A DNA stretch of 64,000 bases, taken from assembly GCA_000091205.1 (NCBI GenBank), contig AP006502.2. One strand, given 5' to 3'. This document shows positions 2,499 to 53,913 of this stretch, one piece after another. The notes beneath the pieces are model-generated. The model made no database searches and was not told where the DNA came from. It saw only the letters and a list, made by a program, of their open reading frames with translations. A program made the position numbers and the translations under genes. Origin of the DNA: Cyanidioschyzon merolae. Lineage: Eukaryota. Each line of letters begins with the position of its first letter. Positions within the stretch are counted from its first letter, which is position 1.

Positions 2499-2968
2499 GC
2501 GGCTGTGTGCTCGACGACAGCGCTGAAGGATCGGTTTCGGTTTGAGCTGCCTGCACTCGGCTCCAGCGTTACCACGGCACACGAGCACGTTGATGGTGAC
2601 GAGACTGCGTGTGCGCGTTTACCGAACTGCGACATGCTCTGTGGCGTGTCGCACCAGCCGAGAAAGATCCCCGCTAACCAAAAGGTTGTCGCAGATCGCA
2701 CACACGCTCCGGGACTTGTGCCGTGCGAGCCACATTGAGGCACGACTCTCATCTTCGAGCTGGCATCCAGAGGTGGCAGGCTGCCGGTGGCCGCCCTGAT
2801 GCCGCCGGCATGGCACTCGAGCTGACACCCCTGACCCAGTTCGGTCCAAGGCGGGCATGTCGAGCCTCGCAGTCATCACTGCCCTGATCCACTGCCCCTA
2901 TCGTCCGGTACGAGCTTGTCGACGATGCTACAAACGAGTGCATGTCAACGCTGTGTGCTCTTGTTTGC

Positions 2969-15618: not shown

Positions 15619-17748
15619 CAAGTGCAACGTTCGGGCGTTTATCGCTGTGAGTCCGCTGCATTCTGCTGGATGTTCAGACGCTTTTATGGTAAAAAAGTGC
15701 AAATACAGCTGATCAGGTGGGTCCAGTACGCGCCCCAAAGCAGCCTGGTGCCAAGCGCTGCGTCGCCGACGAAAGCGACGCCTGGAAGTAAGTGCAGCGT
15801 TGCTCCGGCGGACGCGTCAGTCGCCTGCTCTGGTTCAGTTCCGCGTCTGGTAGACAGTGCCGTACTGGCGCTGTGGACGAGGCGTGCGGCCTCAAGCGCT
15901 TCGAGGTCAGCGTTGGTATCGCGACAGGAGAGTGCGGGCGAAATGCACTTGTGTTCGTGAAGCACAGACTTGATGCCTACACGCCCGTGTCAGCATCGAA
16001 TGGAGCGGATGCTTTTTAACTCGGGCGTGCTCGTTCATGTTTGGATGTCTTCCAATGGTACTCTGTGTAAGTTTGGGGGGCTTTTCGTAGGCTGCTTCCG
16101 CTCCCTCTTTTTCATCAACGATATTCGAGATGCCGTTCGCTCATGGGCCTCTGGCTCTGATGCCTGCAGTGGCGGTCACCTGGTGGTAGCGTGAACGATC
16201 CGATATCGATGGTTTCCGGCCATTGCAGACACGCTGGATGCATAGGCAAAAGTTACGATCTGCACATTTCCTCGCAAGTTCCGTCGCCTTTACATACAGC
16301 CTCGGTGCGCACTTGACAATGGTGACACTCGAATATAAGCTGAGGACTTCCCGTGTGCCTACCAGAACGCATTCTTCACTGAGTTTCATCCCGCGGCAGA
16401 TGACGATCTACTTCATCGCTGGATCCATGCGTTTCATGGGAAACGAGTTTTCCGTCGATGCGCTCCTCGGTTTCAGTGCCCGATGCGGTAGCGTATGATT
16501 ACGCGCTTTTTTTCGGAGGCAATTCGTTCCATGAGTACGCTGTCAGAGGCGCGCGCTGAGGTCCACTGTTCCATTCGATAAAGCAGTCGCGTAACGCGAC
16601 GTTGTCCATACCGAAACAAGCACCGATAGTTGAATCCAGTCTGGAGAAGACCAAAAAATCTGGAGCAGTCTACGCGCCCTTGCTCGAAAGCAGTGGCACA
16701 CGCTGCACTCGAAGCGATCGCTCCAATGACTCAGGTCCGAGTCCAAGATCCTTGTTCATGAAAACCGAAGCAACCGGGAGCCTTTGGATGCATATCTCGT
16801 GAAAGGGACGATGATGTTCTCGAATGCCGTTCCTTGGATGGCCATCAAGAGATATAGAAAATCGCCTTTTGAACGAGATGGATGATTCAACATCATATGC
16901 TCTTTGAATGTTCGGCATGATACCGTGAGCTGGTTGTCAAAGTACGCCGCAGATTGTTTTCCGTCGCTATTCCAGCGACCTCCGTTGCAGCGCCCGCAAC
17001 TTGTCTTGAAGCCGAAAGATAGAAAGACTTTCATGTTCGGTTTGAGCTTGCAGCTTATGAGGAAAGAGGAAGCACGGATGCTTGTATTTATGAATCGAAT
17101 GATGATATCGATTATTTTACGAACGCTTGTTCCGCGGCACTGCGGATCACATCTCGATTCTGGTAACGTAACGAGCTCCAGCAGCAACGTGTTGAACGAG
17201 TATTCCCGAAAAGAAAACGATCGAGCATCGTGAAACTCCACATGCATCCGCACGCCCGTTTCGCTACGCGTCGGATATTCAGGCTGAACATGAAAAATAG
17301 TTGGGGCAAACATCTCAAGGCGGGCACAGCGCGAGCAGTCCAGTACTCCATTTTACATGGACCCCGTGAGCAGACGCTCTCCTCAGTGCGGATATCTATC
17401 GAGTTATCGGGGATTACTGGCCACCATCAACGTCCTGTCGATTACAAGAAAAAGCACAACTACGAGCGCTGTTTTTCCTCTGGCACATTCTATTGGTCTA
17501 TCCGTTTTGAGATAAATTCTATTCGACCCGAATACCGGGATAGCTCGCGTCGCTGCTGTTCGTGAACACAGCTTCCGCAGGTCCCTCTACCCATGTATCG
17601 CTCGGGTTACCAGAGCGTACTGCACGCTCCGTAGTGACAACGAAACATATAGACAGGCTTCTGTTTGTAGTTCATCTGGTCTCCTAATCAACAGTCCAAA
17701 CTCCACGGGAACGAAGCGCTTTATCAAGGATACTCGAGAGAGCTGCTG

Positions 17749-20608: not shown

Positions 20609-21955
20609 TTAGTATTCTTCCTCTTCCTCGTTGGTGTCTGCTGCGACTTCGATGTAGTCTTTCTCGAGCGCGGCGAGGTCCTCACGCGCTTCGCTAAACT
20701 CGCCCTCCTCCATTCCTTCACCAACGTACCAGTGCACAAAGGCCCGCTTGGCATACATGAGGTCGAACTTGTGGTCGATGCGCGCGAATACCTCAGCGAT
20801 GGCTGTTGAGTTGCTCACCATGCAAACCGCACGCTGCACCTTGGCGAGGTCACCATTCGGAACGACCGTGGGCGGCTGCGAATTGATACCAACTTTGAAA
20901 CCGGAGGGGCACCAGTCCACAAACTGGATGCTACGCTTGCTCTTGATCGCTTTGACAGCGGAATTAACATCCTTAGGCTGGACATCGCCGCGATACATCA
21001 GACAACAAGCCATGTACTTGCCGTGCCGCGGGTCGCACTTGGCCATCATGTTGGCGGGATCGAAGGCAGCTGAGGTGATTTCGGCGACGCTGCCCTGCTC
21101 GTGGTGAGCTTTTTCGGCGGATATAACTGGCGCATAACTCGACAGCATGAAGTGAATCCGAGGATACGGTACTAAGTTGGTTTGATACTCGGTCAAGTCC
21201 ACGTTGAGCGCGCCGTCGAAACGAAGCGATGCCGTCAGCGAAGAGATAACTTGGGCGATGAGGCGATTCAGATTCCGATACGTTGGCCTCTCGATGTCCA
21301 GGGATCGCCGACAGATATCATAGATAGCCTCGTTATCGAGAAGCACGGCCACATCCGTATGTTCCAGCAGCGCGTGGGTGGACAGCACAGAGTTGTAGGG
21401 CTCCACTACAGCAGTGCTGACTTGTGGCGACGGATACACTGTAAATCCGAGCTTGCTCTTCTTTCCATAGTCCACCGATAAACGCTCCAAAAGGAGCGAG
21501 CCTAGACCGGATCCAGTGCCTCCGCCAACTGAGTTGAAGATCAGAAATCCTTGCAGCGCAGAGCAGTTATCCGCCAGTTTTCGTATGCGATCGAGAGCCG
21601 TGTCTACTATCTCCTTCCCTACAGTGTAGTGGCCCCGAGCGTAGTTATTGGCAGCATCCTCACGCCCGCTCATCAGCTGTTCTGGGTGGTACAGCTGGCG
21701 GTAAGGGCCGGTGCGCACCTCGTCTACAACAGAGGGCTCCAAATCCAGGAACAAGCAACGAGGAACATGTTTTCCAGATGAGGTCTCAGAGAAGAAGGTC
21801 CCGAAGGAAGCGTTATTGGCAGCTGCGATCGCCGAGTCGCGGCTAGCCATCGTGCCGTCGGGAAGGATACCATGCTCTAAACAGAAGAGCTCCCAGCAGG
21901 CGTTCGCCACCTGCACACCAGCTTGTCCTATATGGAGTGATATAACCTCGCGCAT
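20609..21955 (-). CDS. TUBA: Alpha-tubulin (448 aa, divergent)
   Basis: '[30 protein letters not shown]', '[25 protein letters not shown]', '[35 protein letters not shown]'; C-terminal 'EEEEEY'. Single uninterrupted ORF. Confidence 0.95.
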
Positions 21956-22254
21956 GATAGATTGTATTCGTTGTGAAGCTTTTCAGACACTAAACACTCA
22001 CCAGAGGCGACTATTCACCGAACCTCCGTCGAATGGTTAGGCAGCACGAAAACTCCAAACCGGAACGCTGAAAAATGGCGCGGGATATTCGAATAGCAGA
22101 CACCTGACGCGTTTCGCCGTTCAAAAATCGAACGCCGCGGCCCGCGGTGTGCAGGAGTGGCGATCGGCGCGCCCTAGACATAACGCCTCCAACTGATGTG
22201 CAGACGCCTCCCAGCCTTTTGGACCGGCCAGCCACTACTGCTTCCAATCTTGTC

Positions 22255-23729
22255 TCATATAGTTCCACCTTGGGAGATTGTCCAACAAAGTTCCCTCTCA
22301 TATACTCTGGAGGGACTTCTTTCCATTACCGCAGATTTCCGTATCTTGATAGCGGTGTTAAAGTCTCGGTTCACAAACTCCATCCGTTTCTTGCCATCAC
22401 TGGTTGTACATACTAATGCAAGTAGCCCTCGAACTTTCGCCCTCCTTTCCATTGGCTCTTCCTTCAGCGGTCCGTACTTTGTGAAATCCTCAGGGCTCCG
22501 CTTACACTTTTCCATCTCTACGCTCTGAAGTGCGCACCTCAGTTCATGGTGTGTATACGACGCACGGAACTCGTCTATTGGTATCATAACGAAACGCCGT
22601 GCACACTCCTTGTACGTTCTTGTCGACGGAGCTGGCGTAGTTCCTTTTTCGGCGCCCAGCGCCCTGTCCCATAGGCTACAACGAGCGTCTGATTTTCATC
22701 CATCTTCAGGGCGCTCAACTGATGGAAAAAGTTCGCGAATGCACGCTGCTTCCCACAGCATAGATTCATTCGCAAACGAGCCCACCGAGGCTTGGTATAC
22801 TCCTCCTACAGTGCACCCCAATGCGCAATGCGAACTTCCATGAATTTCCGAAAAGCTTCAAAGTCCGCTCCTCGGCTAGTCACCTCGCTCAAAGCTTCCA
22901 GGATCTCTTTCATTCCTGAATTCCAAGTCTCGATTTTCTTCCTTGCATTCATTATACCCGATTCTGGGTAATATCTCGCTCTCCACAACCTCAACAGACG
23001 CATGTCTTTCTGACGTAAATTACCGTCGGTCCCATCTTCCGCACGCTTCGGTGCTGCGATGGTTATGATATTCGTGTTTCCGGGGTCCGCGCCAACGACA
23101 AAGTCGTTCTCATGCACTTTCTGCGCCGCAGGACCCGCCTTCTTGGTTTATTCATGCTTCTCCGCGTCAACGACAAGGTCGTTCTCATGCACTTTCTGCT
23201 CCGCTGGACCCGCCTTCTTGGTTTATTCATGCCCCGCCGCGCCAACGACAAGGTCGTCATCCTGCACCCCCTGCGTCGCAGAATCCTCCTCTTTGTTTTC
23301 TTCATGCTCCGCCGCATCAACGACAAGGCCGTTATCCTCCACCTCCTGCATCGCAGGACCCGCCTCCTTCTCATCTTCATGGTTCGCCGAGGGCGGAACT
23401 GGACGATCTTTCTTCAACCGCCGATAGTGTACACACTTGGCTACTCCATCGGTCTCGATCATCCCAGTGAACAACTTTTGCTTGCTCATTCTCAGACGTT
23501 TGAAATTGAAGATATTCTTCCAGTGCGTCTCCCGGTTTTCGCCGGTGAAGTTCTCCCTGCTAACAGTGAACTTCGGGCTGATCTCCTTCATGATGCCGTA
23601 GAGGACTGTGGAGTCGATAGTCACGATATGTGACTTGATGTTGCACAACGAAATGACGTTGAAGCGCTTCTCCATTAGGAAGGCCTTCCGTCTCTCCCAC
23701 TCTTCATTGTTTTCCTCACTCAGCTTCAT
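22255..23729 (-). pseudogene. TnpB/Fanzor-like RuvC nuclease, copy A, split over four or more frames (23729-23223, 23117-22806, 22775-22584, 22587-22255). It is either a pseudogene or intron-interrupted.
   Basis: RuvC-I-like '[16 protein letters not shown]'. Zinc-finger remnant 'IPIDEFRASYTHHELRCALQSVEMEKCKRS', compare TnpB 'VDPkyTSqtCs.CG'. RuvC-III-like 'VNRDFNTAIKI', compare 'RDvNAAiNI'. Continuity across the B-copy break is visible here ('ARKKIETWNSGMKEILEALSEVTSRGADF'). Confidence 0.5.
23094..23380. repeat. Internal ~72-bp tandem repeat (~4 units) within repeat-family copy A; on the minus strand it encodes repeated acidic 24-aa units ('[25 protein letters not shown]'-like)
   Basis: 'gccaacgacaaggtcgttctcatgcactttctgc.ccgc.ggacccgccttcttggtttattcatgc' recurs at ~23094, ~23166, ~23238 and ~23310. 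Copy C has ~2 units (33930-34080) and copy B ~1. Confidence 0.7.
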
Positions 23730-23942
23730 CTCCGCATTGCATTCGAGCTCTCGATCCTAAAACACGAAATAGCGCAGGACGAGGCGATAGTATCTTCCCT
23801 TATCTTTTTTCAACTCTGATATCTTGTCTGTTGGATTCGCCAACCCCAAGATCGCGCGGTGCTCTTGCATAGCCGCACGGATTACAGAAGATTCATTCGT
23901 GCTCCTGCGTGACTTCTTCTTGTCGACGAATTCGATCTCATG

Positions 23943-24311
23943 TTAATGCTTGCGATCCTTCGAGATGCCATTGATAATCGCCCATATTCCTTTGCGAGAG
24001 ATGCCCGGGCAGAGTGCAAATACGGTGCGTATCATGAAACGTTCGAGGTTCATTGTGAAATGGTTCTTCAGGTTCGTGAGGTACTTCATCACTCCGTATA
24101 TGTAAATATCCCAGTAACCCTTGCATCGAGTACTGTTGAAGCTGTAAAAGGGATGATTTTCGTGGAGGCCATGGACTAGCACATTTTCCCGCCGCGCTTC
24201 CTCTGTACCAAGCATCAGCTGACGAATAAAGGTCTTATCGAAAAACTCGTCCGGAATCTCGACCGTTTCCATGTGCATCACATCGCGATACATCTCCCTC
24301 GCCAAATGCAT
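23943..24311 (-). CDS. Conserved small ORF of the repeat family (copy A, 122 aa), function unknown. The antisense frame 23940-24179 is also open and conserved.
   Basis: 'GVMKYLTNLKNHFTMNLERFMIRTVFALCPGISRKGIWAIINGISKD' is conserved with copy B (30660-30962) and copy C (34612-34914). Confidence 0.4.
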   Translation of the reverse strand: MHLAREMYRDVMHMETVEIPDEFFDKTFIRQLMLGTEEARRENVLVHGLHENHPFYSFNSTRCKGYWDIYIYGVMKYLTNLKNHFTMNLERFMIRTVFALCPGISRKGIWAIINGISKDRKH

Positions 24312-24529
24312 CAGTCCTGACGACGCCTTGACAATACTCTTGGATTACGAGTCGACACGTTTTTCGATAGCGTCTCGCAACTTTTCCTTACACGGATCCT
24401 TGATATGTCCAAGAAGAAAGGTTTTTACCACCTTTTCGTCGTACAGTTGTCGTCCTTGCCGCTTACGACGTAGGGCCTCCCCCTTTGGGTTCTCCTTCTC
24501 TTCCTTTTCTTCTGGACTCAGCACTGTTT

Positions 24530-24620
24530 TTTGTTTTTTTTTCTAGCAGCCGGCGACCCTGGGCCTCCAGGATCGTGGACTTGCTTTTTTCATAACTTTG
24601 TTTTTTTGTTTTTTTTTGAA
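24530..24620. repeat. T-rich low-complexity tract flanking repeat copy A
   Basis: 'ttttttgtttttttttctag...tttttttgtttttttttgaaaaac'. Confidence 0.7.
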
Positions 24621-27600
24621 AAACAACGCTCTTTGAACCCTTCTGTTATATATTTCGAAAAAACACTTGACTAGACTTGTTTGAAGTTCTAAACAAAAAT
24701 CAACTGAAAGACTATACTTGGCTACGACCTGAACGGAAATCTGACGTTTACAGCTGAACAACACGCTGCTGGTCAGGATCGCGTTTAACTTCAACGGCGG
24801 CATCCGCGTCGCGTCTCCTGCCTGGCTGAATCTCCCAGGTGCGCAAATCGACAGCACTATTTAGAACAAAGAAAAGAGATTCACGACCAAAAAGCAAGGA
24901 TATAACGGATTCTTTCGTCCTCTACGATAAACGATAAAACAGGGAAAAGTTTTCCGTACTGTCGCAAGTCCTCCTTCCAGGCGGAAAGTTCCGCGAGCCT
25001 GACGAGTCTCCCAGACTCGTGCTTCGTGCTCCCCCCAATGGCAGGTCTTGAAGCGAGACCTCGGCAACTCGTCTGGAATGCAGTTTATTCCAAGATCGCG
25101 AGTGGCTGGAGTGCGTCTGGTCGTCGCCCTGATCGTCGTTTTCTTCCAGCAAATTGCATGGCTCCGTTGCAGGCAGCAAGTCTGTCTGCGCAGTTGCCAA
25201 ACTCCCAGGAGAATGATGAATCCCAGGCCCCGTGTCGGCTGAACCACACCTCGAGCCGATGCCCCCAGTGATATGACAAAGTTATTCTGTTCCCGTGCTG
25301 AATCCGGACCAGCAGTATAGGCTCTGTTGCTGCAGGCGCTCGGGGCAGGCGCTCGGCACACCATAGAACCTACGAAACGACCATCGCATCCGAGAGAAAG
25401 CATGGATAATGGAGCTTAAAGGTAGGGTGGAACATGATAGACACTCTTTCGATCACCAATATCCATCCCGCAATCTAGGAGCCGTGGTCCATGAAAACAT
25501 TCTGGAAAACACAGCGATCTGTGGATTTGAGATTTGCGCATACACTGCCGCGGATACCTTGACGCGTCGCCACGGCGATCGATCGGAACATAGAAAGCAC
25601 AGGTGCCGAAAAGTATCACAAATTGGAAAGGGAACCATTTTCAATCGTTCAAGATTGACCAAGAGAACGACTTGTTGTCGAGTGTTGTCCTTCTTTTTAG
25701 TGGCTACACAGCTGTCGCGGAACCGATAAATCAAGAGGATGCAGCCAAAACCCTCAACGAACGCAGATGCGGTAGCCCAACTGTCTGAGAGCTCCGAATC
25801 ATCGATAGCCGGGCATGATGGACGGCGTGAGGCGTACGATCGAGTAGGATGGCGAGGTCAGGACCCGTCTCGATGCTTTGGGTTCCTTTCCGATGAATGA
25901 GGACATTTTCTGCGCCTTATTTCGAGCGAATATTAGCGTCCAACTAGCGAAATCGGACAATCTCCGGCTGGAGTGCATGACATCGTGCACGGGACGCCAA
26001 CGGTATCCGCAGTGCAGAGACAACAAGCGTGGATTCAAGTGTCTGCTCAATATGTAGGAAATAGAAATGACGAACATGTCGTGTCGTTTGGTCGAGGCCC
26101 GTGGCTCTGGAGGTGCTGCAACGCGCTGAACCTGCACTTTTGCTCCGTCGACCAGCGCGCACAAAGTGTGCAGGAACTGAATCTTTCCATCTCCCATCGA
26201 TGCAATCCAGACGATTTGAGCGCATCACGAGCACAAGGGCACGTTGAGCGTGCTAGACGACAACAGCAACATCGTGAAGCAATGACGAATGCACCAGATG
26301 ATGGAAAGTTAGTTGACCATCCGTTTATGGCGAGGCAGTCGAGGGCAAGAGACTTGCGATGATATGACTCTCCGCGCAACAGTACGCGCCATGACTCGAT
26401 GCGTCGTGACTGGAAGGCTCCCATCACGAGCGAGGGATGTCTCGTGCTTCCCGGGCGGACGTCCGTCGGCTCGGTATCCAGCGAGCTTTCGCAGGAATCG
26501 TTTCGTACCAAGCGTGTGCGTTGTGCTGCGATGCGGAAGACTTGCGCTCACGAAATCAGTGCCTGGGAGAGGGTCATAGATTCCCGTCTGGCTCAAGGCC
26601 CTGGCATGATACGGGGTCACCAATGCGGCAAGGCTGGTGCGTTCTATGCATACATCGGGAACGGTTTCCCCGGTAATCGGTGACCAAGAATGGTGCCATA
26701 TCATTCAGTAGTACTGAATATTGGTATATATAGGCAGAACGTTTCACCGTAAACCTCTGATGGATTCCTAAAGCAACGTCAGACTGAATCGGATCGGGTC
26801 CGTTCAGATAACCCGAGTGTTTACGCTCAACATGAGGGTCTCTTCTCCTTGTCATCAACATGAGCGTTTTGCGCGCTTCCACTGCGAATGCTTCCTTTTT
26901 CTCTCGCTTATATGCGGTTTTCAGTGTGCCGGTCTCTACGATCCCTCCAGCTCCGATGTCAGCTGTTGGGGAGAGTTCATGAGAGCGTGTGAGTCCCGCT
27001 CTCGTCGCTTCCTGCTGTTGTCGACGCATTGCATGCCGAGGCTCAAGTACGATCTACATATCGATTCCCATTTTCACCGTCTTTGTAGATAGCCTTGATG
27101 CGCTCTTCGCAGCGCTGTTCATTCACTGAGCTCAGGTGCTCCCATCTGTCCACCGAGTTTGCTTCTCAGAGCATTGCCAACCTCTATAGTGTTCGAAAGC
27201 TTCGTTCATCTCGTTCGATGCCGTCCTCCGTTTCCGCGCTCGGTGCCGTACCGTACGATCATGAGCAACTTCTGTATGAAAACTACGGCGACTGCGCTGT
27301 CCTCTGCACGTGGGAGCGCGCGCTGTTCCATGAAAGCCCGTACTTGTGGAACGCAATGTTGTCCTTGATGAAACAAGTACCGAGAAGCAAAATCCAGGAT
27401 ACAGAACATGATAACGAATTTCGATGTTCCGGCGCCCCGTTCGAGCTAAGCGATGCTGCACGCTCCACTGGAAACAATCGCTCCGATGAATCTAGTCCGA
27501 GTCCGAGACGCTCTTTTATGCAAAGAGCAGAAATGCGAGCTTCTCGCAACGTATCATAGGAGAAGTATCATGCCGTTGTCGAATGGCGTCTTATCGATGG

Positions 27601-30600
27601 GAACAAAGATGGAAAAATCTGATTTTTTGAACGGAACAGATGATTCGACTTGACAAGTTCCGTGAAGTTTCGGCTTATACTTGTGACCGAATCGTTCACG
27701 GACGACCTCGAGTATCTTTCCTCGTCAACCTAGCGGTGCAAAGGGCTGCACCCATGATTTGCCTTGAAATAAAGAGATCGAATCCCTGAAGGATTTGTGA
27801 TATGCGCGTGTCTCACATAAAGAAAAGAGATGGGCGGAGGCTTTGCCTCATGAATTCGATGATGATATCGGTAATTTCACGAACCTTCGTTCGGCGGCGT
27901 CGCCAAACATCCTGAATCCGGTGACGTAACAAAAGCCAACGGCAAAGCGTCGTAGCGGGCACTTCACCACTGAGAACGCTGAGCCTACGTATGCATCCGC
28001 AAGCCCTTCGTGCAGCACTCGAAATTACAATTCTATACATGTACATACGGTTCGGAAAAAAATCTCAGGGCATGAACAGTGCGACCAGTTCCATGTTTCA
28101 GTTTACTCTGACACGCGTCCTAGTGCAGGTAGCGGGGTGCGAGCTTCAGCGGCATCGTCCTCGCTTGACCAAGAAGCCTTGTAGTTACAGCGGGCGCGCT
28201 CCGATGCCTGAACGTCATCGCGGGCCCATCGGACAAGTCTCGCACTGAACGCCAATAACGCAACCCTTGTATTCATCTTCTGCGTGTTGTGCAGGGGCCC
28301 GCCCTGGCAGCGGTTTCTGCATAACTCGGCACCGCTCAGAGGACCTGTGGCACATCCACGGGACAAGGACATGATACGCGGGCGGCGGGTACCGGTCCTG
28401 GCCCTGGTTCCGCTGACGACGGCACCTCAGCCATAACTTGCGTACTGCGACGACGAAAGCGACGTGCTTGGTGGCACACGCTGCGCGCCATGGTGTCGCT
28501 CTCGGTTCCAAACAGCTGCCGAGGTATACCATCACGAAGCCATGTTGCAGGACGTTCACAGAATGGGGCAGGTACAGCCTGTGCTTCCCGCTCAGTCCAA
28601 GTCGGGGAACGAGTCAGCACACCAATAGGCCCAGCGAGACGACGTGTCGCAGCCGTCACAGACGCTTGTTCTATATCCTCGACAGGCTCATGCCTGGTGT
28701 TGGTACCGCTCAGCGAACCAACAGTTGACGTACTCGAGGAGCGTGTGCGCACACCAGGTCCGGTGCGCGCATCGCCTCTGTAGTGCCATTTTGTGAGCGC
28801 ATTCTCGTGCATCCTCGAGCGATCTCGGGCCTCGACGTGTACGCCTCTTGGAAGGTGTTTGTGAGTCGATATCGAGAAGCTTTGGGGCGGAACAGTTTGC
28901 GTGAAGCTGAAGGAGCGAGCCCTCTGAAGCTTTGCGCTTTGGGGTTTGACTCTCAAGTCACCCGAGATCGTACGTTCGCGAACGCAGATGCACCAGCACC
29001 GCCTCACGGCTACGTTTTGTATTCCGTTTTCGCTGGGCCGGCACGCAACCTCCTCGCGTCGGTCTGGGACCATTTGCGACGTAGTGGCGTGCGGTATGCG
29101 TGGTATCAGGCAGAGAGCTCCTGTAGAGCGAGCACCGTCAGGTCAACGGTCACCAAAGCACACGTTGTCAGTTCCGGGAAACGCGGCCACATGCGCGGAG
29201 CCAGGGACTCGTACGGAAAATGATGTGCTGCTGACGTTGCGAGGAACCCGAACTAGTATTTTTCTTTCACCCTTTGTCCTAATAGTCTTCCTTTTCTGGC
29301 AAATAGTACGCTTTTTTACGAGGGTATTGCTTTTTCTATTGATCTTCTCGGGTGTGAGCGCCTTCTTATGGGTGCGGCGCAGCAGAATGTGGGTGCTGGA
29401 AGTTCGTGACTGTATCGGGAGAATGGCCACGATGCGTTTCCAGAGGCGTCAAATGAGCGTCGTTCCCGTCAGTATCGTAGTGAAAGCCCGGTGCAGGACG
29501 CAGCAGCACGCGCCACAGCCAGCTACAGCAGCCCAGACGCATGACAGGCGGCGTGCGCAAGGGACACCAGCGCCCGAAGTGCCAGAGTGGAGGGATGATA
29601 TTGATTTTTCTTTGACGCCACAGCCGTCTTGCTGGCTACCGTCGACACTGAGCATCGACTGCTCTTCTCTTTGGGCACTGCTGTGGCGCTTGGGTCCGGG
29701 CGACGATTAGCCCAGTGTACGTTAATCAGCACGAATCGATCCATTCGGTGAGCGTACCGGATCGCCAGCCATTGACATGCTTCGACTTGTGAACAAAAGG
29801 AATTTCGGGGCAGTGTGGATTGGGTGCTTCTCTCTGTGACGGGCGCCAAAGCATCTCATCGTTATGCTGTGAAGAGGGCTGTCTCCGAAGATGACCTTTT
29901 CATCGTGCGCTGTCCAGAGGGTTCTGTAGACAGAGCGAACCATGTCAAAGATGATCTCGCTCGGAAAGCCTGGAGAACATCAAAAAGAATTCATAAAATT
30001 TCGCTGGGAATATTTCAGCCCGTACAGCCGTTCCCAATGCTCTGCAGTAAAAGGTTGCCACTGTTCGAACAAGCGTGCAAGCAACGACCTGGAGCAGCGG
30101 CGAGGCTGCGAGCGTTTCAGAGACCCGGAGGCTTGCAGCGCGGGAGTGTGCCATGCGCTCGCTCTGGCGGCAACGTGAGTACCTGTCGAGGCCGTACCGC
30201 GGTGTCGCTTTCTAATTTGCACCGCGAAACAGGAAACGAATGTCATGGGCTTCACTAGTGCATCTGCAACTGACAGCGATGCCAGGCAGCGAGGCAGCTG
30301 GACGCAATCCGGGGCCTTGTTCGGGCGCTGAATGTTTTGTTCGATGACAAAACGTGTATATGGACCATGGATCCCAGGTTGCGTGATGGATGGGCATTGG
30401 CTTTCTGGAAATCACTCTTTATTTGAAGCTCCAAGTTTTAGTTCGAGTACCCGTACTTCCTCTCGGACTTGGGGGTCGTTCTGTACGTTCCATCGTGCGC
30501 CGAGTGCCTGCAGCGCTGCAGCCCGCAATAGCGCCTAAACCGCTGATGCAGATGCTGCACAGAGAGAGAACGGCTTTGCCATGCCACTGAGGGCGTCATA

Positions 30601-30659
30601 TCGCGGAACGCTTCACCAGATACGGAGTCGGAGTACGTAATCATTCTGGGAGCCTAAAA

Positions 30660-30962
30660 ATGGGCAAGCAGACGTCCTCTATGCGGCGGCGCGAATCGAT
30701 ATACCAGGATTACAACCTGAGCAGGGCGATGCCCAGACACAGCGCGTCCGCTCCTAGTCCCAGAATACACTCTGACGGGGCGATGAAGTACCTCACGAAC
30801 CTGAAGAACCATTCGACAGTGAGCCTCGAAGGTTTTATGATACGCGCCGTGTTTGCAGCTCACCCGGGCATCTCTGGCAGAGGGATATGGGCGATTATCA
30901 ATGGCATCACGAACGATTGCCGACATGAAGGTCAGATCGAATTTGTCGACAAGAAGAAGTGA
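30660..30962 (+). CDS. Conserved small ORF of the repeat family (copy B, 100 aa); the antisense 119 aa frame 30654-31013 is also open
   Basis: 'AMKYLTNLKNHSTVSLEGFMIRAVFAAHPGISGRGIWAIINGITNDCRHEGQIEFVDKKK'. Copy C differs at 2 of 100 residues. Confidence 0.4.
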   Translation: MGKQTSSMRRRESIYQDYNLSRAMPRHSASAPSPRIHSDGAMKYLTNLKNHSTVSLEGFMIRAVFAAHPGISGRGIWAIINGITNDCRHEGQIEFVDKKK

Positions 30963-31212
30963 CACAGGAGCACGAATGAAGCTTTTGTGATCCGTGCGGC
31001 TACACAAGAGCACCGTGCGGTACTGGGGCTGGCGAATCCGGCAGCAAAGATATCAGAGTTGAAGAAAGATAAGGAAAGATACTATCGCCTCGCCCTGCGG
31101 TATTTCGTGTTTCTGGACCAAGAACTCGAACGCAAGGCGGAGATGAAGGTGAGAGGGAAAAAATGAAGAGTGGGAGAGACGGAAGGCTGTCCTAATTGGG
31201 AAGCGCTTCAAC

Positions 31213-32397
31213 GTGGTTCCAATGTGCAACATCAAGTCAGATTTCGTGACTATCGACTCGAGAATCCTTTACGGCATCTTCAAGGAGATCAGTCCGGAGT
31301 TCAATGTACGGAAGACAGAGTTCACCGGCGAAACCCGGGAGGCGTACTGGAGGAATATATTCGATTTCAAACGTCTCAATACGAGCAAGCAGAAGATATT
31401 CACGGGGATGATCGAAACCGGTGTAGTAGGCACGTGTGTCCACTATCGGCGGGTGAAGGCGGATCGCCCTATCGTGCCTTCGGCTTTCCCCGTGACGAAG
31501 CGTGAAGATAAGAAGGAGGTGGGCCCTGGAACGTATAGTCCCCTGGATAACGACTTCGTGGTAAGCATGGACCCAGGGAACACGAATATCATAACCATCG
31601 CAGCACCCAAGCGTGGAAAAAATAGTAACAACGGCAACTTATGCCAGAGAGACATTCGTCTTTTAAAGCTCTCGAGAGCTAGAGACTACCGAGAATCGGG
31701 AATAATGAATGCGAGGAAACAAAGTGAGACCTAGAATTCAGGAGTGAAGGATCACCTGGAAGCTATGAGCGAGGTGACGAGCCGCGGAGCGGACTTTAAA
31801 GCTTTTCGGGAATTCATGAAAATTCGCGTTAGTCATTGGGGGACGCTGTGGAAAGAATATTCAAAGCCCTGGTGGGCTCGTCTGCGTATGAGTCTGTACT
31901 GTGGGAAGCATCGTGCATTCGCGAACTTTTTCAATCAGTTGAGCGCATTGAAGGAGGACGAGAGTCAGAAGCTCGTGGTAGCATACGGAGCAGGGCGCTG
32001 GGCGTCGAAAAAAAGGACTACGCCAGCTCCAACTACAAGAACGTACGAGGAGTGCACAAGGGGTTTCGTTACGATACCTGTAGATGAGTTCCGAATGTCG
32101 TATACACACCATGAGCTGGGGTGTACACTCCAGAGTGTCGACATGGAAAAGTGCCAGCGGAGCCCCGAGGATATACAAAAGTACGCAGCGCTGACGGAAG
32201 AGCAAATGGAGAGGGAAGCGAAAGTTCGAGGATTGCTTGCACTGGTGAGTACAGCTACTAACGGCAAGAAACGTATGGTGTTTGTGAACCGGAACTTTAA
32301 TGCCGTTATCAGTATAAGGAGATGTGCGGTGATGGAGACGAGACCTCCGAAGTTGAGAGAATTTTATGGGGCAACCTCTCAAGGTGGAACTATATGA
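31213..32397 (+). pseudogene. TnpB/Fanzor-like RuvC nuclease, copy B, split in two frames (31213-31734 and 31744-32397) by a stop or frameshift. The RuvC-III Asp is replaced by Asn.
   Basis: '[16 protein letters not shown]' (RuvC-I). 'LVVAYGAGRWASKK' lies where RuvC-II is expected but has no Glu. 'VTIPVDEFRMSYTHHELGCTLQSVDMEKCQRS' is a zinc-finger remnant. 'VNRNFNAVISI' is RuvC-III-like with D->N. Confidence 0.5.
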
Positions 32398-32653
32398 GAA
32401 AAAGTTGAAACCAGTAGTGGGTGGCCATTCCAAAAAAGCTGGGAGGCGTCTGCACTTTAGCTGGAGACGTTCTGTCTAGGGCGCGTCGGTCGCCACTACT
32501 GTACGCCGCTGAAGGCAACGTTTTTCTTTCGAAAGGCGTTCGCTGGAGGTGTCCTGCACTTGAAACTGTGGTTCAAGGACACACGGGTGGCTGGTTCCCG
32601 AAACTCGCGTCCAACACTACCGACGAGCGACGCCGTGCTCCCCGAACGAAGCG

Positions 32654-33073
32654 ATGAAACACCGCATAAACCTGCGTAAGCTCGGTCGAGACTCAGCCCA
32701 CCGCTTAGCTCTCTTAAGAAATCTTGTTTCTAGTCTGATTGAGCACGAGAGCATAGAAACGACCGTGGCGAAAGCGAAGGAGTTGCGTCGCGTTGCGGAT
32801 AAAATGGTAACGCTTGGAAAGCGTGGCGACGGTCTGTCCCGAATCCGAGCTCTTGGTTTCGTTCGTGGACCGCATCTTGTGCAAAAACTGTTTCGTACGC
32901 TTGCGGAGCGATATCGTGAACGTAACGGTGGCTATACTCGAGTGATGCGATCGAGGAACCGACGAGGCGACAACGCCCCAATGGCTATCGTTGAACTCGT
33001 TGACTCGCCGAAGGGAGTAATACGCCGGCCACTGGAACACTACCAACGTTCAGAGCAGCGGCAATCAGTGTAA
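32654..33073 (+). CDS. Ribosomal protein bL17 (bacterial/organellar type), 139 aa
   Basis: 'MKHRINLRKLGRDSAHRLALLRNLVSSLIEHESIETTVAKAKELRRVADKMVTLGKRG...NGGYTRVMRSRNRRGDNAPMAIVELVD' aligns along the full length of bacterial L17. No long presequence, as is typical for mitochondrial bL17 (e.g. yeast MRPL8). Confidence 0.85.
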   Translation: MKHRINLRKLGRDSAHRLALLRNLVSSLIEHESIETTVAKAKELRRVADKMVTLGKRGDGLSRIRALGFVRGPHLVQKLFRTLAERYRERNGGYTRVMRSRNRRGDNAPMAIVELVDSPKGVIRRPLEHYQRSEQRQSV

Positions 33074-33872
33074 CACAAACCATTGATCGGTGCATGAGAC
33101 CATGAAACCGCGGGCATGGGAATCTAAAGCGCGGAAGCAAATGGCCATGCCGGTGGCGGCACCTGTGAAATGAAGTTACAGTGATGAATTGGAACGCTGT
33201 ACCCAGCAGGAGAGGTATTCCTGCCCTGTCATCGCTCAAAATTGAGAGCCTCAAAGCTGGTACTCGATGCTCTAGAGTAGAGGGTGTTTTCACTGCTGGG
33301 ATTAACATGGACAGCTTCATTGCCGGGTCAGTTGGTCCACTCTGTGCACTCTCGGCCTGGGCCGTATAAGGGCTTCGAACCGTTTTATGCTGCGGAAAGG
33401 TTGACGCCATCCATAACGCGGCAGCCGTCCACCGTAAAGGATCGCTTCGCGGTAGCGCCGTGATTATGAGGCCGCCACTCCTAGAACTGAGCTCCAAAGC
33501 GCTCGGCAACGCCACCTGCTTATGCATGTGTACGCGTTGCACGTACCGGATCGCCAGCACGAGCTGCATGCTGTCTGGTGTGCTTTCACGTAATGAGCTT
33601 GGAAGACTAGAATCCTGCGTTATCACGGAGGCATGCGCGGCACGCGGACCTCGACACGCTGCACCTCGAACGCGTTTGCGTCTGACAAGTGTTGGGCCAC
33701 GCTGAGGACTTCCGTTCCAATCTCGTAAATCCGTGTCGAATGTGGTAAAACAGCCAACGGATCGCAGAGAGTCTCAACTAAGTGAGCTGGATATTACAAA
33801 AGAGGCTGCTTCCGGGGACACTATTCGAGAATCTCAAAAGTGGCATGTCTTTCTGACGTAATTTACCGTCAG

Positions 33873-34361
33873 TCACATCCTCCCCACGCTTGGGTACTGC
33901 GATGTTACGATATTCGTGTTCCCAGGGTCCGCGTCAACGATCAAGTCGTTATCTTGCGCCTTCTGCGTCGCAGGATCCGCCTCTTCCTTTTCTTCTTGCG
34001 GCACCGCGCCAACGACAAGGTCGTCATCCCGCACTTTCTGTGTCGCAGGATCCGCTTCCTTCTCATCTTCATGCTTCGTCACGGGGAAAGCCGAAGGCAC
34101 GATAGGGCGATCCGCCTTCACCCGCCGATAGTGGACACACGTGCCTACTACACCGGTTTCGATCATCCCCGTGAATATCTTCTGCTTGCTCGTATTGAGA
34201 CGTTTGAAATCGAATATATTCCTCCAGTACGCCTCCCGGGTTTCGCCGGTGAACTCTGTCTTCCGTACATTGAACTCCGGACTGATCTCCTTGAAGATGC
34301 CGTAAAGGATTCTCGAGTCGATAGTCACGAAATCTGACTTGATGTTGCACATTGGAACCAC
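33873..34361 (-). pseudogene. Truncated TnpB/Fanzor-like N-terminal fragment, copy C
   Basis: The first ~95 aa are identical to copy B 31213-31500. It then has two acidic 24-aa repeats and stops right after 'DPGNTNI'. Confidence 0.45.
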
Positions 34362-34611
34362 GTTGAAGCGCTTCCCAATTAGGACAGCCTTCCGTCTCTC
34401 CCACTCTTCATTTTTTCCCTCTCACCTTCATCTCCGCCTTGCGTTCGAGTTCTTGGTCCAGAAACACGAAATACCGCAGGGCGAGGCGATAGTATCTTTC
34501 CTTATCTTTCTTCAACTCTGATATCTTTGCTGCCGGATTCGCCAGCCCCAGTACCGCACGGTGCTCTTGTGTAGCCGCACGGATCACAAAAGCTTCATTC
34601 GTGCTCCTGTG

Positions 34612-34914
34612 TCACTTCTTCTTGTCGACAAATTCGATCTGACCTTCATGTCGGCAATCGTTCGTGATGCCATTGATAATCGCCCATATCCCTCTACCAG
34701 AGATGCCCGGGTGAGCTGCAAACACGGCGCTTATCATAAAACCTTCGAGGCTCACTGTCGAATGGTTCTTCAGGTTCGTGAGGTACTTCATCGCCCCGTC
34801 AGAGTGTATTCTGGGACTAGGAGCGGGCACGCTGTGTCTGGGCATCGCCCTGCTCAGGTTGTAATCCTGGTATATCGATTCGCGCCGCCGCATAGAGGAC
34901 GTCTGCTTGCCCAT
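34612..34914 (-). CDS. Conserved small ORF of the repeat family (copy C, 100 aa)
   Basis: Differs from copy B 30660-30962 at 2 of 100 residues. Confidence 0.4.
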   Translation of the reverse strand: MGKQTSSMRRRESIYQDYNLSRAMPRHSVPAPSPRIHSDGAMKYLTNLKNHSTVSLEGFMISAVFAAHPGISGRGIWAIINGITNDCRHEGQIEFVDKKK

Positions 34915-35469
34915 TTTTAGGCTCCCAGAATGATTACGTACTCCGACTCCGTATCTGGTGAAGCGTTCTGCGATATGACGCCCTCAGTGGCATGGCAAAG
35001 CCGTTCTCTCTCTGTGCAGCATCTGCATCAGCGGTTTAGGCGCTATTGCGGGTTGCAGCGCTGCAGGCACTCGGCGCACGATGGAACGTACAGAACGACC
35101 CCCAAGTCCGAGAGGAAGTACGGGTACTCGAACTAGAACTTGGAGCTTCAAATAAAGAGTGATTTCCAGAAAGTTACTACCCATCCATCACGCAACCTGG
35201 GATCCATGGTCCATATACACGTTTCGTCATCGAAAAAAGACAGATCATTGTGGGCGCAGACTGCCGTGCGCGCTGCCTCGTAGCGCCGCGCCCGGCGCGA
35301 CGCTACGCCTCCGCCACCGAAGGCCATCGGGGCGCAGGCGCCACCGCAGAAGCAAGCCTCCGCCGATCGACTGCCTCAGGTCAACGCGATGCAGCTTTCG
35401 TAGTGTTTTGAGCGGAGCGCTCGCATCCTGTGTAGGTTTCTTTGGCTTTGCACTCGCCTACATAAGGCT

Positions 35470-38400
35470 ATGCCTGGTCAACCTGCCATAAGAGTTCATG
35501 ACACGCTAGGATTCGCCGTCAATGTACGATTCCAGACGGATGTGCTCGGAACGCAGCTTGCAACGCGTGACACAACGTTCGTGCACGTGGCGCTGCAACA
35601 GCAACGGCGACAACGAGCGTATCCGAACCGGTCTGGACGACGACACGTTCACCAGAGCGAACAGCGACTCGACGTGCTCCATCGCAATTCAGCATGGCGT
35701 CCGCAAGGTACAGTTCAACGGAGTTCGTCTCGCATGGAGTTGTGGCTCTCGACGGACGAGGGTGAGGTCTTCGGGCCGGCGCCGGCGTTCTCTGTGAAAA
35801 CAAAGGCCGCACCCCGTACAGAAGTTCCCGGAAAAACGGCATCCGGGAGCACTGCGATGTTGTCGGCCTCGAGGGAACAGGGCTCTGGAGACGGTCGGAC
35901 ACGCGTCGACCGTCGACGCCTCAAGTTGCTCTTTCAGCTGGCCTGCGATGCGGAGTCGAAAGGCCGTTTCGCCGAGGCAGCAAGCCTTGCTCGCCAGTGT
36001 CTTGAACTGGACGAGTATGATGCTCGCTCCTGGTTGTTGCTGGCACGTCTCGAAGCGAGCCTCGTACATGCGGACGATCGCAGCTGCACAGTCAGTGTCG
36101 TCAACGGCACGGAGGGCATCCATGTCTGCACAAGCCACCAGCGTGCACGTAACACTTACCGTCAGGGCGTACTCATGTGCCCCGATTCAGTGCATCTGTT
36201 ACATGCTTGGGCGATGTTCGAATATCGACTCGGGGAGATCGAAACTGCACGGGAGCTCTTCCGCCGCGGTCTTGCTCTAGATCCGGCGAACGCCTACATT
36301 TACCACTCGTGGGGACTGATGGAGTGCCGACGTGGAGGCGTCGAGAAGGCCCAGCAACTCTATGTTGAAGCATCTGCATGCTGCTTGAATGATGCGATTT
36401 GTAGCGCCTGGGCCGAACTCGAGGCACGTGGCGGCCGAATGCGTCTCGCTCGCTGCATTTTCGAGCTCGGTCTGGTAATGCTGCTTCGTGATTTCGCGGA
36501 CACGCTGCATCTTACGGGTTCGGATACCGAAGAGCACGATCCAAATCGAGAAGCGGTCCGAGATATGCCGTACGGCTCGCTTCGCAGTCTCGTCCGGGTG
36601 CTGGTTGCGGAGCACTTGAGGGAGAAGGAACGCCCCCCAGTTTCTGGCTTGTGTGGGAAAGAGCGTGACATGGCGTGCCTATCACCGAACGCTGATGCCC
36701 GGCCTACGCCCGGAGAACGCAGTGAGCGAGCGCTCCGAGCCTTACTTTTGGATTGGTTATCTTGGTATAGAGACGGGCGCAACCCGAATCTGATCCATAT
36801 TCGTCTCACGGTACGCACGCGATCGCGCAGAGGTGATCGATATCAGCTGGCTGCGGACCATTGTGTGCAGTATGCAGACTCGGAGCTCACCCATGGGTCC
36901 ATCACGCGAACACGGGAAATCCTACAGTGGGCACTGGATCTTGATCCCACCAATGTGAAAGTCCTGCTGGCGTGCGCTCGTCTTGATGCACAACGTGGCG
37001 CCCATGAGCGGGCTCGCTCTCTGTTTCGGGCGGCGGAAAGCGCGCTCCGAAAGCGAGGAACTGCAGTTGAACGCATAGACGATGCGCAGAGTGCGAGTCA
37101 CCGAGTTGGTGTCTCTCTCTATACATCCTGGGCAACGATGGAGATGAATTTGAGCAGGCCGGTCGAAGCAAATGCCGTGCTTGAACGAGGGAATGAACGC
37201 TTCCCCCGGAACCACGCCCTCTACCAAACCTGGGCACTAGTGCAGGAAAAGCGGGGACAGCCGGATGCAGCCCGCCAACTCTTGGAACAATCCGTTCGCT
37301 TGCGACCGAACGCGCCTGCCTATGTCGCATGGGCTCTGCTGGAGGAGCGCGAGGGCCATTTGGACACGGCACGTGAGCTCTTCGAAGCCGCTCTGCAAGT
37401 GGATCCGAGCCACAGCGCCACCTACAATGCTTATGGTCGTCTCGAGGCTCGTGCCGGGGACCTCGAAAAAGCTCGCCGTGTTTTTCTTCGTGGTCTGCAT
37501 GTCCAACAGGCACCCTGCATCTATCATGGATTCGCCCTCGTCGAGCTACGCTACGGGAATGGTATCCGACGAGCAGAGGAGATCCTTTTGGAAGGAATCG
37601 CGCAGAAAAGCGACAGAAGTATGTTTCTATGGCACACACTAGGTGCTCTCGCTTTTCAACAGAAAAAGTATGAAAAAGCGCGAGAGATTTTCGCCCAGGC
37701 GCTTCAGATCTACCCCAGCAATAGTCGATTGCTTCTCGGAGCGGCGCTCTCGTACGCAGCAGAGGCAACGGCTTTAGACGCGGAGAGGCCGCGCCAGTTA
37801 TTTCGGCGCGCGCTACAGGAGGATTCCTTTCACGGACATGCATGGCAATGCTGGGGAGTATTCGAGAGTCGCCTTGGCAACGTGGATGCTGCCCGGTTAC
37901 TCTTTGAACGCGGCGTTGAGCGATGTCCGTTCCACGTACCACTTTGGCAGGCGTACGCGCTGCTGGAGAGCACCGCAGGGAATATCCGCAAAGCTCGCAT
38001 CCTCTTTGAACGCGGCATGCAGCTAGAAAGCGACCACGTTCATCTCTTGAATGCTTACGCATGTATGGAAGCACGAGTCGGCAACTATCAAAAGGCACAG
38101 TGTTTACTGGAACGGGCGCTGCGCATCGATCCTGGGCATGGTGCAACCTGGAACGCGCGTGCCTTGCTGGAGCTGCGCAGAGGGAACCAGCACGGCGCTC
38201 GCGAGGTGCTAGAGGAGGGCCTCGGAAAGGACGCCAACCACGCGCCGCTGTACCGAACCTATGCGCGTCTGGAGTTAGCGCTTGGCAACGTTGAACGAGC
38301 ACGGCTGCTCATTGAACAGGGCCTTGTCAGGGATGCCAGCGATTCCGGCCTGATCCAGCTGCGCACTGATTTGCAGAAGCCGTCAGCAGTTTTCACAGCC

Positions 38401-41809: not shown

Positions 41810-42009
41810 TCAAGACGGCAGAGCGCTCTTGTTAAGCGTCTCTACACTGCGACAATGCAGGTGTCGTTTGAAGCCCTAGACGCAGAATCGCACAGCCTTG
41901 TACCAAAGCACCGCGTCGAGTTCTCGCTCCTGGGGAGCTATGAGCACCCCAAGCGCGCTAGGCTCTCACGACCCAAAGCGCCCTTGAACGGTATTCTGAC
42001 CGAAACGCG

Positions 42010-42180
42010 GTGCCGCTTGCCCGATGCAAACGAGCCCAAGCTTCGTCCCGCTCTCGATCGATACCGTCACCGCAACGCTGTACCGCTCGCCCGATTCAAA
42101 CGAGCCCAAGCTTCGTCCCGCTCTCGATCGATACCGTCACCGCAACGCTGTGCCGCTTGGCAGGCGCGAACGAGCCCAAG
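42010..42180. repeat. Tandem repeat, ~70 bp unit x ~2.4, in the divergent intergenic region between tRNase Z (-) and the glycosyltransferase (+)
   Basis: 'g(t)gccgcttgcccgatgcaaacgagcccaagcttcgtcccgctctcgatcgataccgtcaccgcaacgct' occurs at 42010-42079 and 42080-42149, then partially at 42150-42180. Confidence 0.8.
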
Positions 42181-51816: not shown

Positions 51817-53913
51817 GCCAAGCGCTGCTTGCGAGCCCACAGAGCATGACGCAGGCGAGCATGCAAAGCGTAATGTTGACGGCGCGCTTGCGGATCACGC
51901 ACTAGGTCCGTATTAGATTCAAGTGGAGCATTGCACTGCTCGCTCTGGTCCTGCCTTGCGACTTTTCTCGAACATTTCTGTATACGCACCGCCTCGATAT
52001 TCGTATTCTAAACATAGGGGCGTAGGGATTCATACATCGTTTTAGGATTCTCGGTCGTCTATTCGGGGTTACGCTTTCGACGTTCGGTCGCTGAAATGCG
52101 GTGCATTACCAGAATCAGGATAGTTCGCGAAGCGCTCCAGCAAGGTTTCCCAGAATCACCTCCATCATCAGCTATTGCATACGCGCAAGCTTCCACGCAT
52201 CTCCTTTGCAAGCGTATCGCGTGCTCCAATCCTGCATTCTCCAACGTTTCGATCTTTCTGCTTCAAGGTAATTCGTGGATGCAGCAGTTCACGTCAATAG
52301 ATCGGCGAGGAAAACCACTGGACGTCGTCCCATGACGACTTGCTCACTAGCTCATGCCAAACGTTCACTGGACTGCTCACGTCCATTCCTCGGCCCGTTC
52401 CAAAGACAAGTCCTGTTCTCATTGTGGAGAACGACGAGACGAGATTCGGCAATAGCAGCACACGGCTCATAGCGTACGCTCCCAGAAGCTCTCGTCTCTG
52501 CTGTTCACATCGCGAAGCGTCCTGGACTCGCACTTGAGTCGAGACAGGGACCGCCTCTCACAGAGCAAGCGTCAACAATCTGCGTGAACGGAGCATAGGC
52601 GAAACGGAGTTTATCAACTTGGTCTCCAATCCGGAGTGTCTCTCCGACACCTGCTTCATCACGGACGTCGTGGCGTTCCACGTGTCCTGCATCGAACGGA
52701 GCAACGTGCGCTTCCAAGCGCAGCGTACAGGGTACTCGCGCATGGAATCGTTCAGAAGAACCCCGTCATCGCGTGGCACCGCACAGGGCGCAGGAACCGT
52801 GCAGACCGTTGGGCCAATGCTTCTATACCCGTCAAGGGCGTGTACCGTGCTAAGAGGGCAGCGTGCACGCGCCACAGGGTCTGTCTCGAAGGCGCGTTGA
52901 TTATCGACACCGAGAAATATCTGACTCTAGTGGCTGCATCACCGCTGCGAAGGACGCACCGAGGCCATATTCGCAAGCGTGACAATGGCACCCGCTGCGT
53001 AGATTGCAACTACGACCGCCTGCGCATGCCTTGCACGAACAATAGCCGAAAGCAGCGAAATCCTGACTTTCATGCTGCCGCCGACACCCTTTGACTACGC
53101 ACAACGCAGTGTGAGGAAAAGGAAAGATCGGCGTGTGTAAAACCGGAGCTCGAAAGAGAGCAAAGAGAAGCGGGTGCTGGGGAAAGCGCGCAAAGACTGT
53201 TCTTGATGGCAGAGGCACGAGTTCCAGATTTCCACGTGAACTCCGAGTCAGCGATGAAGGACTCCTTTCCATTGTACGCTGATAGGCGTTGAAAGACGTG
53301 TCTGGGTTACGTTCTCGTGGCGTTGGTTTCGGGGAATGCACAACAAATTATTCGCTGTCATTGGTTATCGATTTCGTTCAATTTACAGATCTCGTCCGAT
53401 TTTCACGTAATTCGGAAACAAAACCCTTGGCTTGCATGGGAAACACTTGCGCGTTTACGTCCGAGGTGCCTCATCGGAAGCAGAGTCCTGCAACCAGCTC
53501 GAGCTGGTTGAAAAACATATCATTTTCGTTCCTCGCATGTTCGTTGCGCTCTTACCATGCATAAACCGAGGCGCAAATCTGGAGGCTCTACTAGAATCAC
53601 AACCTCCACTGACAAACGTTTGAGGGCGAATGCATCACGCGATGCAGCACTTGGCGAGGCGTTGCACTAGTCCAAGCAAGTTTGGTCCAACACGGAAAAA
53701 CAAAGTCCGAGCCTATTCCCATGTTCACATTCCGTGTCGCAGCTTACAAATGGCATCCATTCCATTACTTGCCTGTTGATCTGTTCCGGTCGCAAGTCCA
53801 CTGGCGATGCGAACGCGAGCCATGCGAATACTGCCCCCGGTGTGCGTCTCGCAGCAGATGGTGCTCGCGTACGAAAACGCGACCCGACAGCGATGTGTTT
53901 GGGACACGCTCCA

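Follow-up and report, generated by a model that had tools for sequence, protein, structure and literature searches.

Two Fanzor1 relics around the bL17 gene of Cyanidioschyzon merolae form a near-identical inverted repeat with the probable signature of gene conversion

Introduction

The red alga Cyanidioschyzon merolae has one Fanzor1 family, CMe-1A, which was described as ~150 old copies of ~3 kb with ~80% identity to their consensus, lacking terminal inverted repeats, a determinable target-site duplication and a transposase (Bao & Jurka 2013, Mob DNA 4:12, PMC3627910). Here we analyze a stretch of 64,000 nucleotides (nt) of this genome (GenBank contig AP006502.2, assembly GCA_000091205.1), referred to below as the window, in which two defective copies of CMe-1A, named B and C, flank the gene for ribosomal protein bL17 in opposite orientations. 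Both copies belong to the family by consensus and protein match, but they depart from its norm in sharing a 976-bp deletion, in the loss of the 3' 868 bp of copy C, and in a mutual identity of 98.4%, far above that of the family; this near-identity and the placement around bL17 are absent from the published description (PMC3627910). We report that the near-identity is confined to part of a longer and much older homology, a pattern that probably arose by gene conversion between two pre-existing relics, and that the segment carrying bL17 is plausibly found in both orientations in environmental genomes.

The closest described systems are inversions mediated by inverted repeats, such as the polymorphic inversions of humans (PMC3961182) and the flip-flop of plastid inverted repeats. 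In these, highly identical inverted copies enclose DNA that occurs in both orientations, the breakpoints fall inside the repeat and the arms evolve in concert through gene conversion, a combination that the bL17 locus plausibly shares. It differs from them in being small (1.2-kb arms and a 2.5-kb spacer), in lying in a very compact algal nuclear genome, and in that its second orientation comes from short-read metagenomes only. Gene conversion involving a Fanzor-family element has also been described in another form, the restorative homing of OMEGA systems by TnpB and Fanzor, in which the empty site is cleaved under RNA guidance and the excised element is then restored with the sister chromatid as its source (PMC13565253). 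Unlike that process, the exchange proposed here would have involved two dead paralogs, and there is no sign that a nuclease took part.

Results and discussion

A 1.19-kb inverted repeat encloses bL17

A repeat finder and a BLAST comparison of the window with itself agree on two inverted arms of 1193 nt that are 98.4% identical, with 19 mismatches and no gaps, and that are separated by a spacer of 2517 nt (Table 1). The inverted repeat is genuine and well above chance. A preliminary sequence-only reading of the window had described near-identical inverted repeats bracketing a complete bL17 gene, and both the repeats and the gene, the latter by its Pfam match, are present as described. Its estimate of ~1.4 kb for the repeat was too long, as the near-identical part measures only 1.19 kb and identity beyond it is 72-77%. 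Its comparison of translated open reading frames (ORFs) holds in itself: the 111-amino-acid (aa) ORFs of the two arms are identical and the 119-aa ORFs differ at 2 residues. Neither ORF follows the reading frame of the element, as one is read in a different frame and the other from the antisense strand.

The mismatches are unevenly distributed along the arms: 12 fall within the outer 540 nt and 6 within the innermost 27 nt. Between positions 30878 and 31502 there is no mismatch at all, leaving a perfect core of 624 nt which is probably the latest conversion tract. Inward of the arms, homology continues in register to ~31665 in copy B and 33825 in copy C at an identity of 72-77%. Within this diverged part a 75-nt unit occurs once in copy B and twice in copy C, and the adjoining stretch of copy B at 31666-31740 has no counterpart in copy C.

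Table 1. Positions in the window of the three CMe-1A copies, the parts of the inverted repeat and the enclosed gene
Feature	Position	Strand	Description
Copy A	22115..25504	-	consensus 7-3169 = 25504-22115; full-length, pseudogenised, ~80% to B and C
Copy B	30342..32538	+	consensus 1-422 = 30342-30771; 1399-3169 = 30775-32538
Left arm	30336..31528	+	5' part of copy B, consensus 1-422 joined to 1399-~2125
Identical core	30879..31501	+	624 nt, 100% identity to 34695-34073
Inner continuation of B	31529..31665	+	72-77% to C 34045-33825; inner limit of the probably homogenised tract
Unique DNA from B 3' end to truncated C end	32539..33824		no repeat, consensus or Rfam match; would move with the segment in an inversion
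bL17	32654..33073	+	Pfam Ribosomal_L17, E = 2.4e-37; inside the 2517-nt spacer
Copy C	33825..35232	-	consensus 1-422 = 35232-34803; 1399-2196 = 34799-34004; 2126-2301 = 33999-33825
Inner part of C, apparently not homogenised	33825..34045	-	consensus 2126-2301; two 75-nt units at 33929-34078
Right arm	34046..35238	-	5' part of copy C, 422/1399 deletion junction as in B

The identity profile of the two copies is a mosaic

We aligned copies B and C with the 3169-bp CMe-1A consensus, taken with the 734-aa protein from the supplement of PMC3627910, and with the third copy of the window, copy A, which served as a yardstick for normal divergence within the family, and scored identity in bins of 100 nt. 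Overall, the three copies match the consensus at 77-87% nucleotide identity and both of its termini are matched. In every bin from consensus position 1 to 2100, B and C are 94-100% identical to each other, while in the same bins the identity of each to the consensus is 72-91% and that to A is 52-88%. As B and C are nearly identical to each other but both far from the consensus, they must have private substitutions, stop codons and the 422/1399 deletion in common. In bins 2101-2300 their identity falls abruptly, to 77% and 75%, with the alignment still in register. At the other end, the limit of identity is consensus position 1, beyond which the flanks are unrelated, and at five element ends neither a common flanking motif nor a target-site duplication was found.

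The two copies therefore display a sharp-ended tract of near-identity, a longer diverged homology in which it lies, and shared private changes. A simple duplication or a fresh insertion would not stop exactly in register with an older, diverged fragment, whereas conversion or another form of homologous recombination explains the shared changes, the in-register drop and the outer limit at consensus position 1. Based on this profile, we consider it probable that two old, pre-existing and dead CMe-1A copies in inverted orientation were homogenized by gene conversion or another form of homologous recombination. The perfect core within a tract that is otherwise 2.2% diverged suggests that there was more than one event.

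In the course of events that we propose, two old and transposase-less CMe-1A relics would have come to flank bL17 in opposite orientation, and non-allelic homologous recombination, in the form of gene conversion, would then have replaced ~1.19 kb of one copy by the corresponding sequence of the other. The replaced tract would extend from the 5' terminus of the element inward to consensus position ~2100 and would take in the 976-bp internal deletion. The 624-nt core may have been kept identical by a later event or by conversion that continues, and crossing-over within the same homology may flip the 2.5-kb segment that holds the 3' half of copy B and bL17. We infer conversion as the mechanism, and we favor copy C as the donor and copy B as the recipient.

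The direction is favored on account of a metagenome contig, L001, which is ~99% identical to copy B from position 31504 onward and, just upstream (consensus 1945-2115), only ~82% identical to it, being nearer to the consensus there. The point at which it switches is the exact inner boundary of the repeat, and the contig thus has the look of a copy B that has not been converted, which favors C as the donor. As an observation apart, L001 (1-8671) holds, upstream, a head-to-head join of its B-type sequence (from consensus 1945) to a CMe-1A 3' fragment that runs in reverse, from consensus 3145 to 2262, and it also carries Asp-protease and MutS genes that are absent from the window.

An alternative origin of the repeat is a recent inverted duplication, by fold-back, template switch or staggered-break inversion, which would have copied the 5' 1.2 kb of one element across bL17. 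It would account for the very high identity, including the perfect core, and for the presence of the same deletion and the same pseudogene lesions in both arms. Such a duplication would nevertheless have to begin exactly at the 5' terminus of the element and to end in register with a diverged fragment that continues for ~200 nt, and the B-type sequence of L001, which extends upstream of the boundary to consensus 1945, implies that B was not originally truncated there. We consider this origin unlikely. Its staggered-break form was rejected on the in-register junction and on the B-type sequence that L001 has upstream of that junction. A simple recent inverted segmental duplication, as the sequence-only reading had suggested, does not describe the locus, as the identity stops at the 5' terminus of the element without entering the unique flank and the inner drop to ~75% occurs in register.

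The locations of the outer ends, both of which are true 5' termini of the element abutting unrelated flanks, would also fit a young CMe-1A subfamily with an internal deletion that was mobilized in trans and recently inserted twice, independently. The sequence that the arms share is, however, as far from the consensus (72-91%) as that of old copies and carries stops and frameshifts; the inner part of C is contiguous and in register with B at only 75-77% identity; and the family is old, with no transposase known (PMC3627910). Moreover, the 422/1399 junction is present in no other copy examined, namely copy A and the copies on contigs L017 and L005, and the fragment on L001 does not reach the junction. 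Two such insertions are very unlikely in our estimate, and gene conversion between old copies remains the reading that we prefer.

Environmental contigs carry the same junctions

The exact bL17 protein is encoded on many metagenome contigs, which are ~99% identical to the window. Four types of junction (left flank to arm, right flank to arm, arm to the 3' part of B, and arm to the inner part of C) recur in independent JGI and ENA assemblies, and the duplication is therefore not an artefact of one assembly. An artefact, in which one repeat was placed twice or the reference was oriented wrongly, would have been conceivable because the perfect core is longer than a short read. The recurrence of both flank/arm and both arm/inner junctions speaks against it, as do the 12 outer sites at which the arms of the window differ, and clone-based Sanger sequencing was used to finish the 10D genome. 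We regard this explanation as extremely unlikely.

Two further contigs depart locally from the sequence of the window. L005 is 99-100% identical to the window up to ~34390 and then passes into a 5' part that lacks the deletion and adjoins another flank, being either a second haplotype or a chimera; the possibility that it represents a divergent strain was rejected, given its 99-100% identity up to that point and its subsequent switch to another copy. L003 differs from all other haplotypes at ~25 clustered sites within 170 nt of copy B (31852-32022), which looks like ectopic conversion from another copy of the family or a local chimera. Additional searches added little: a scan of metagenomes with a 24-mer from the repeat core returned three contigs, two of them already found; exact look-up of a 66-aa ORF in the arm yielded one new, uninformative contig; and no exact match was obtained for the proteins of the TPR gene and of the two ORFs that straddle the inner boundaries.

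The segment between the arms appears in both orientations among short-read contigs

The order seen in the window, with the left flank followed by an arm and the 3' part of B, is found on contigs L008 and L014. The inverted order is found from one side on L002/L015, which carry the right flank, an arm, the 3' part of B and bL17, and from the other side on L003, L004, L006, L007, L009 and L010, which carry bL17, the inner part of C, an arm and the left flank. The two junctions of the inverted contigs are those expected if the segment between the arms flips. L008 and L014 share four private single-nucleotide polymorphisms in the left flank that are absent from the six inverted contigs with that flank, a partition for which we count about 1 chance in 28. 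On these contigs the arms are almost identical over ~1.16 kb. It is plausible that the 2.5-kb bL17 segment is an inversion polymorphism in environmental genomes, for which short-read assemblies have no power of proof.

The earlier suggestion that the repeats are recombinogenic is supported by the conversion mosaic and by the appearance of the middle segment in both orientations on environmental contigs. The cruciform that had also been proposed is unlikely to matter with a spacer of 2517 nt.

In either orientation, bL17 keeps the same 2.2 kb upstream, consisting of the 3' part of B and an arm, and the same downstream sequence, and the neighboring genes still face the 5' terminus of an arm. With its surroundings unchanged, bL17 should be expressed in the same way, and the inversion would be expected to be neutral in this respect.

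It should be noted that several observations weigh against conversion followed by inversion as set out above. A first conversion between copies of only ~75-80% identity would be inefficient. L005 either conflicts with C as the original carrier of the tract or is an assembly chimera, and it leaves the donor without certainty. The odd join on L001 is either a chromosomal rearrangement of a wild strain or an assembly chimera, so that this contig could be partly chimeric. As for orientation, short reads can neither span nor phase a repeat of ~1.16 kb, and the order on a contig may be an arbitrary path taken by the assembler; the middle-segment haplotype of L002, which is inverted, is that of L008, which is not. 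Sites at which the arms differ may also have been lost from metagenome contigs through bubble-popping during assembly.

The arms are parts of a dead Fanzor1 element

Three-frame translation reveals that both arms and copy A encode pieces of one protein, with the motifs DPGNTNI, AYGAGRW, VDEFRxSYTHHELGC and NR(D/N)FNA in this order. The conceptual translation of copy B is 77% identical to residues 166-734 of the published CMe-1 Fanzor1 protein. An exhaustive profile search with the family gathered 1489 relatives, and a profile of the family and its distant relatives matched solved Fanzor1 structures from Parasitella (9cf0, 9e-21), Spizellomyces (8gkh, 2e-11) and Guillardia (9cer, 6e-6). The same structures were not reached in a PDB search with a narrower 16-member family profile or with a single sequence, neither of which gave any match. 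Pfam scans of the element translation and of five family members returned nothing significant, with only a marginal match to TNB (E = 0.51), and the AlphaFold2 model of one family member was unusable (predicted local distance difference test score, pLDDT, 36). The predicted membership of the family in Fanzor1, the eukaryotic TnpB, is confirmed by these computations together with the literature. The TnpB-like ORF and the transposon-derived repeats of the sequence-only reading are accordingly the published element CMe-1A, and what it took for a conserved 3' non-coding block (~32398-32538) consists of the end of the Fanzor1 ORF, a C-terminal tail shifted out of frame, and a 60-nt 3' untranslated region.

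Copy B is a pseudogene in which consensus 423-1398 (976 bp) is deleted, with the junction at 30771/30775. Its coding sequence has two in-frame stops, two frameshifts and a change of the RuvC-III motif from RD to RN (32287-32304), which replaces the catalytic D by N. Copy C has the same deletion (junction 34803/34799) and is truncated at consensus 2301, so that it lacks the last 868 bp, including RuvC-II, RuvC-III and the 3' end. The Fanzor motif D-X(125,275)-[TS][TS]-X-X-[zinc finger]-X(5,50)-RD is intact in neither of them, while A and the consensus keep RD. In copy B the D is present (31570-31590), the E/TS element reads VDEFRMS from 32080 and the zinc-finger positions read HH..C..C; copy C stops short of the TS motif. 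With the catalytic motif broken, B and C are members of the family by descent and not functional nucleases.

Just upstream of the RuvC-I motif, the Fanzor1 ORF contains a 75-nt (25-aa) tandem repeat that varies in copy number, with four units in A (23087-23391), two in C, one in B (~31504-31570), one in the consensus and at least five in the metagenome protein P0005. At the other end of the element, a long-range stem of 10 bp spans the stop codon (CCAGTAGTGG / CCACTACTGT), pairing 32411-32420 with 32493-32502 in B and 22232-22241 with 22151-22160 in A. It is conserved in five copies, shows almost no covariation, has a single-sequence folding z of -1.45 and matches nothing in Rfam; an Rfam scan of the whole interval 21500-36000 was likewise without a match. 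The stem could be part of the scaffold of a Fanzor guide (omega) RNA.

The state of these copies also bears on the idea, raised in the sequence-only reading, that bL17 is the cargo of a composite transposon formed by the two elements. The bL17 locus resembles Tn5 and Tn10 in that a cellular gene sits between inverted copies of a mobile element. Unlike them, it has neither a transposase nor intact ends, a target-site duplication is missing, and there is no sign that the whole has moved as one piece. Both copies are dead, C having lost its 3' 868 bp and B being an internally deleted pseudogene, and no transposase ORF is present; the outer flanks share no direct repeat, so that no target-site duplication surrounds the unit, and only one bL17 bordered in this way is present in the window. 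The family itself lacks a transposase, terminal inverted repeats and a defined target-site duplication (PMC3627910). We judge a composite transposon to be so improbable as to be next to negligible.

Concerted evolution of relics in a compact genome

Both the family and the mechanism were already known, and what we describe is ordinary ectopic recombination between transposon relics rather than a new molecular system. Conversion between B and C, as we read it, is a concrete example, and one that can be dated, of dispersed Fanzor1 relics evolving in concert, and plausibly also of an inversion, in a nuclear genome that ranks among the smallest and poorest in repeats of any photosynthetic eukaryote. 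It also flags a locus at which short-read assemblies of C. merolae-like algae will conflict on gene order. There is no indication that the repeat regulates bL17.

On a more speculative note, there is a very slim chance that conversion of CMe-1A is triggered by RNA-guided cleavage from a few intact Fanzor1 copies elsewhere in the genome. If this were so, homing-like copying between paralogous sites would explain the persistence of a transposase-less family of ~150 copies, and the B/C pair would be a recent product of it. A weaker version would have the bL17 cassette flip recurrently in wild populations; if true, this recurrent flipping would show directly that mitotic or meiotic recombination is active in an alga for which asexuality has long been assumed.

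Neighboring genes and other repeats

The window is intron-poor nuclear DNA of ~56% G+C. In it, bL17 is a nuclear gene whose product is a ribosomal protein of the organellar large subunit, identical to BAM83433.1 of C. merolae 10D. The alpha-tubulin gene at 20609-21955 on the minus strand likewise encodes a protein identical to a 10D entry, BAM83431.1, and the two matches place the window in strain 10D or one nearly identical to it. Both genes lie close behind a CMe-1A 3' end with the same orientation: that of copy B (32538) is 115 nt upstream of the bL17 ATG (32654), and that of copy A (22115) is 159 nt upstream of the alpha-tubulin ATG (21955). A third CMe-1A copy, on contig L017, ends ~530 nt upstream of a co-oriented helicase gene. 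The proximity of CMe-1A 3' ends to start codons may be no more than a consequence of the short spacing between genes in this genome.

A second old family of dispersed repeats is seen mainly by translated comparison, at 33-45% identity, with copies at ~27170-28120, at ~51900-52860 (inverted) and at ~16450-17310, and also on contig L005 (4766-5730); the left flank of the inverted repeat, which is poor in genes, contains one of the copies. On the minus strand, ARAGORN reports a tRNA-Ile (anticodon TAT) at 62554-62622, which may be a false positive and lies within a 733-aa ORF of the same strand (60650-62851). Finally, a short direct repeat with a period of ~70 nt occupies 41999-42180, with 88% identity over 112 nt.

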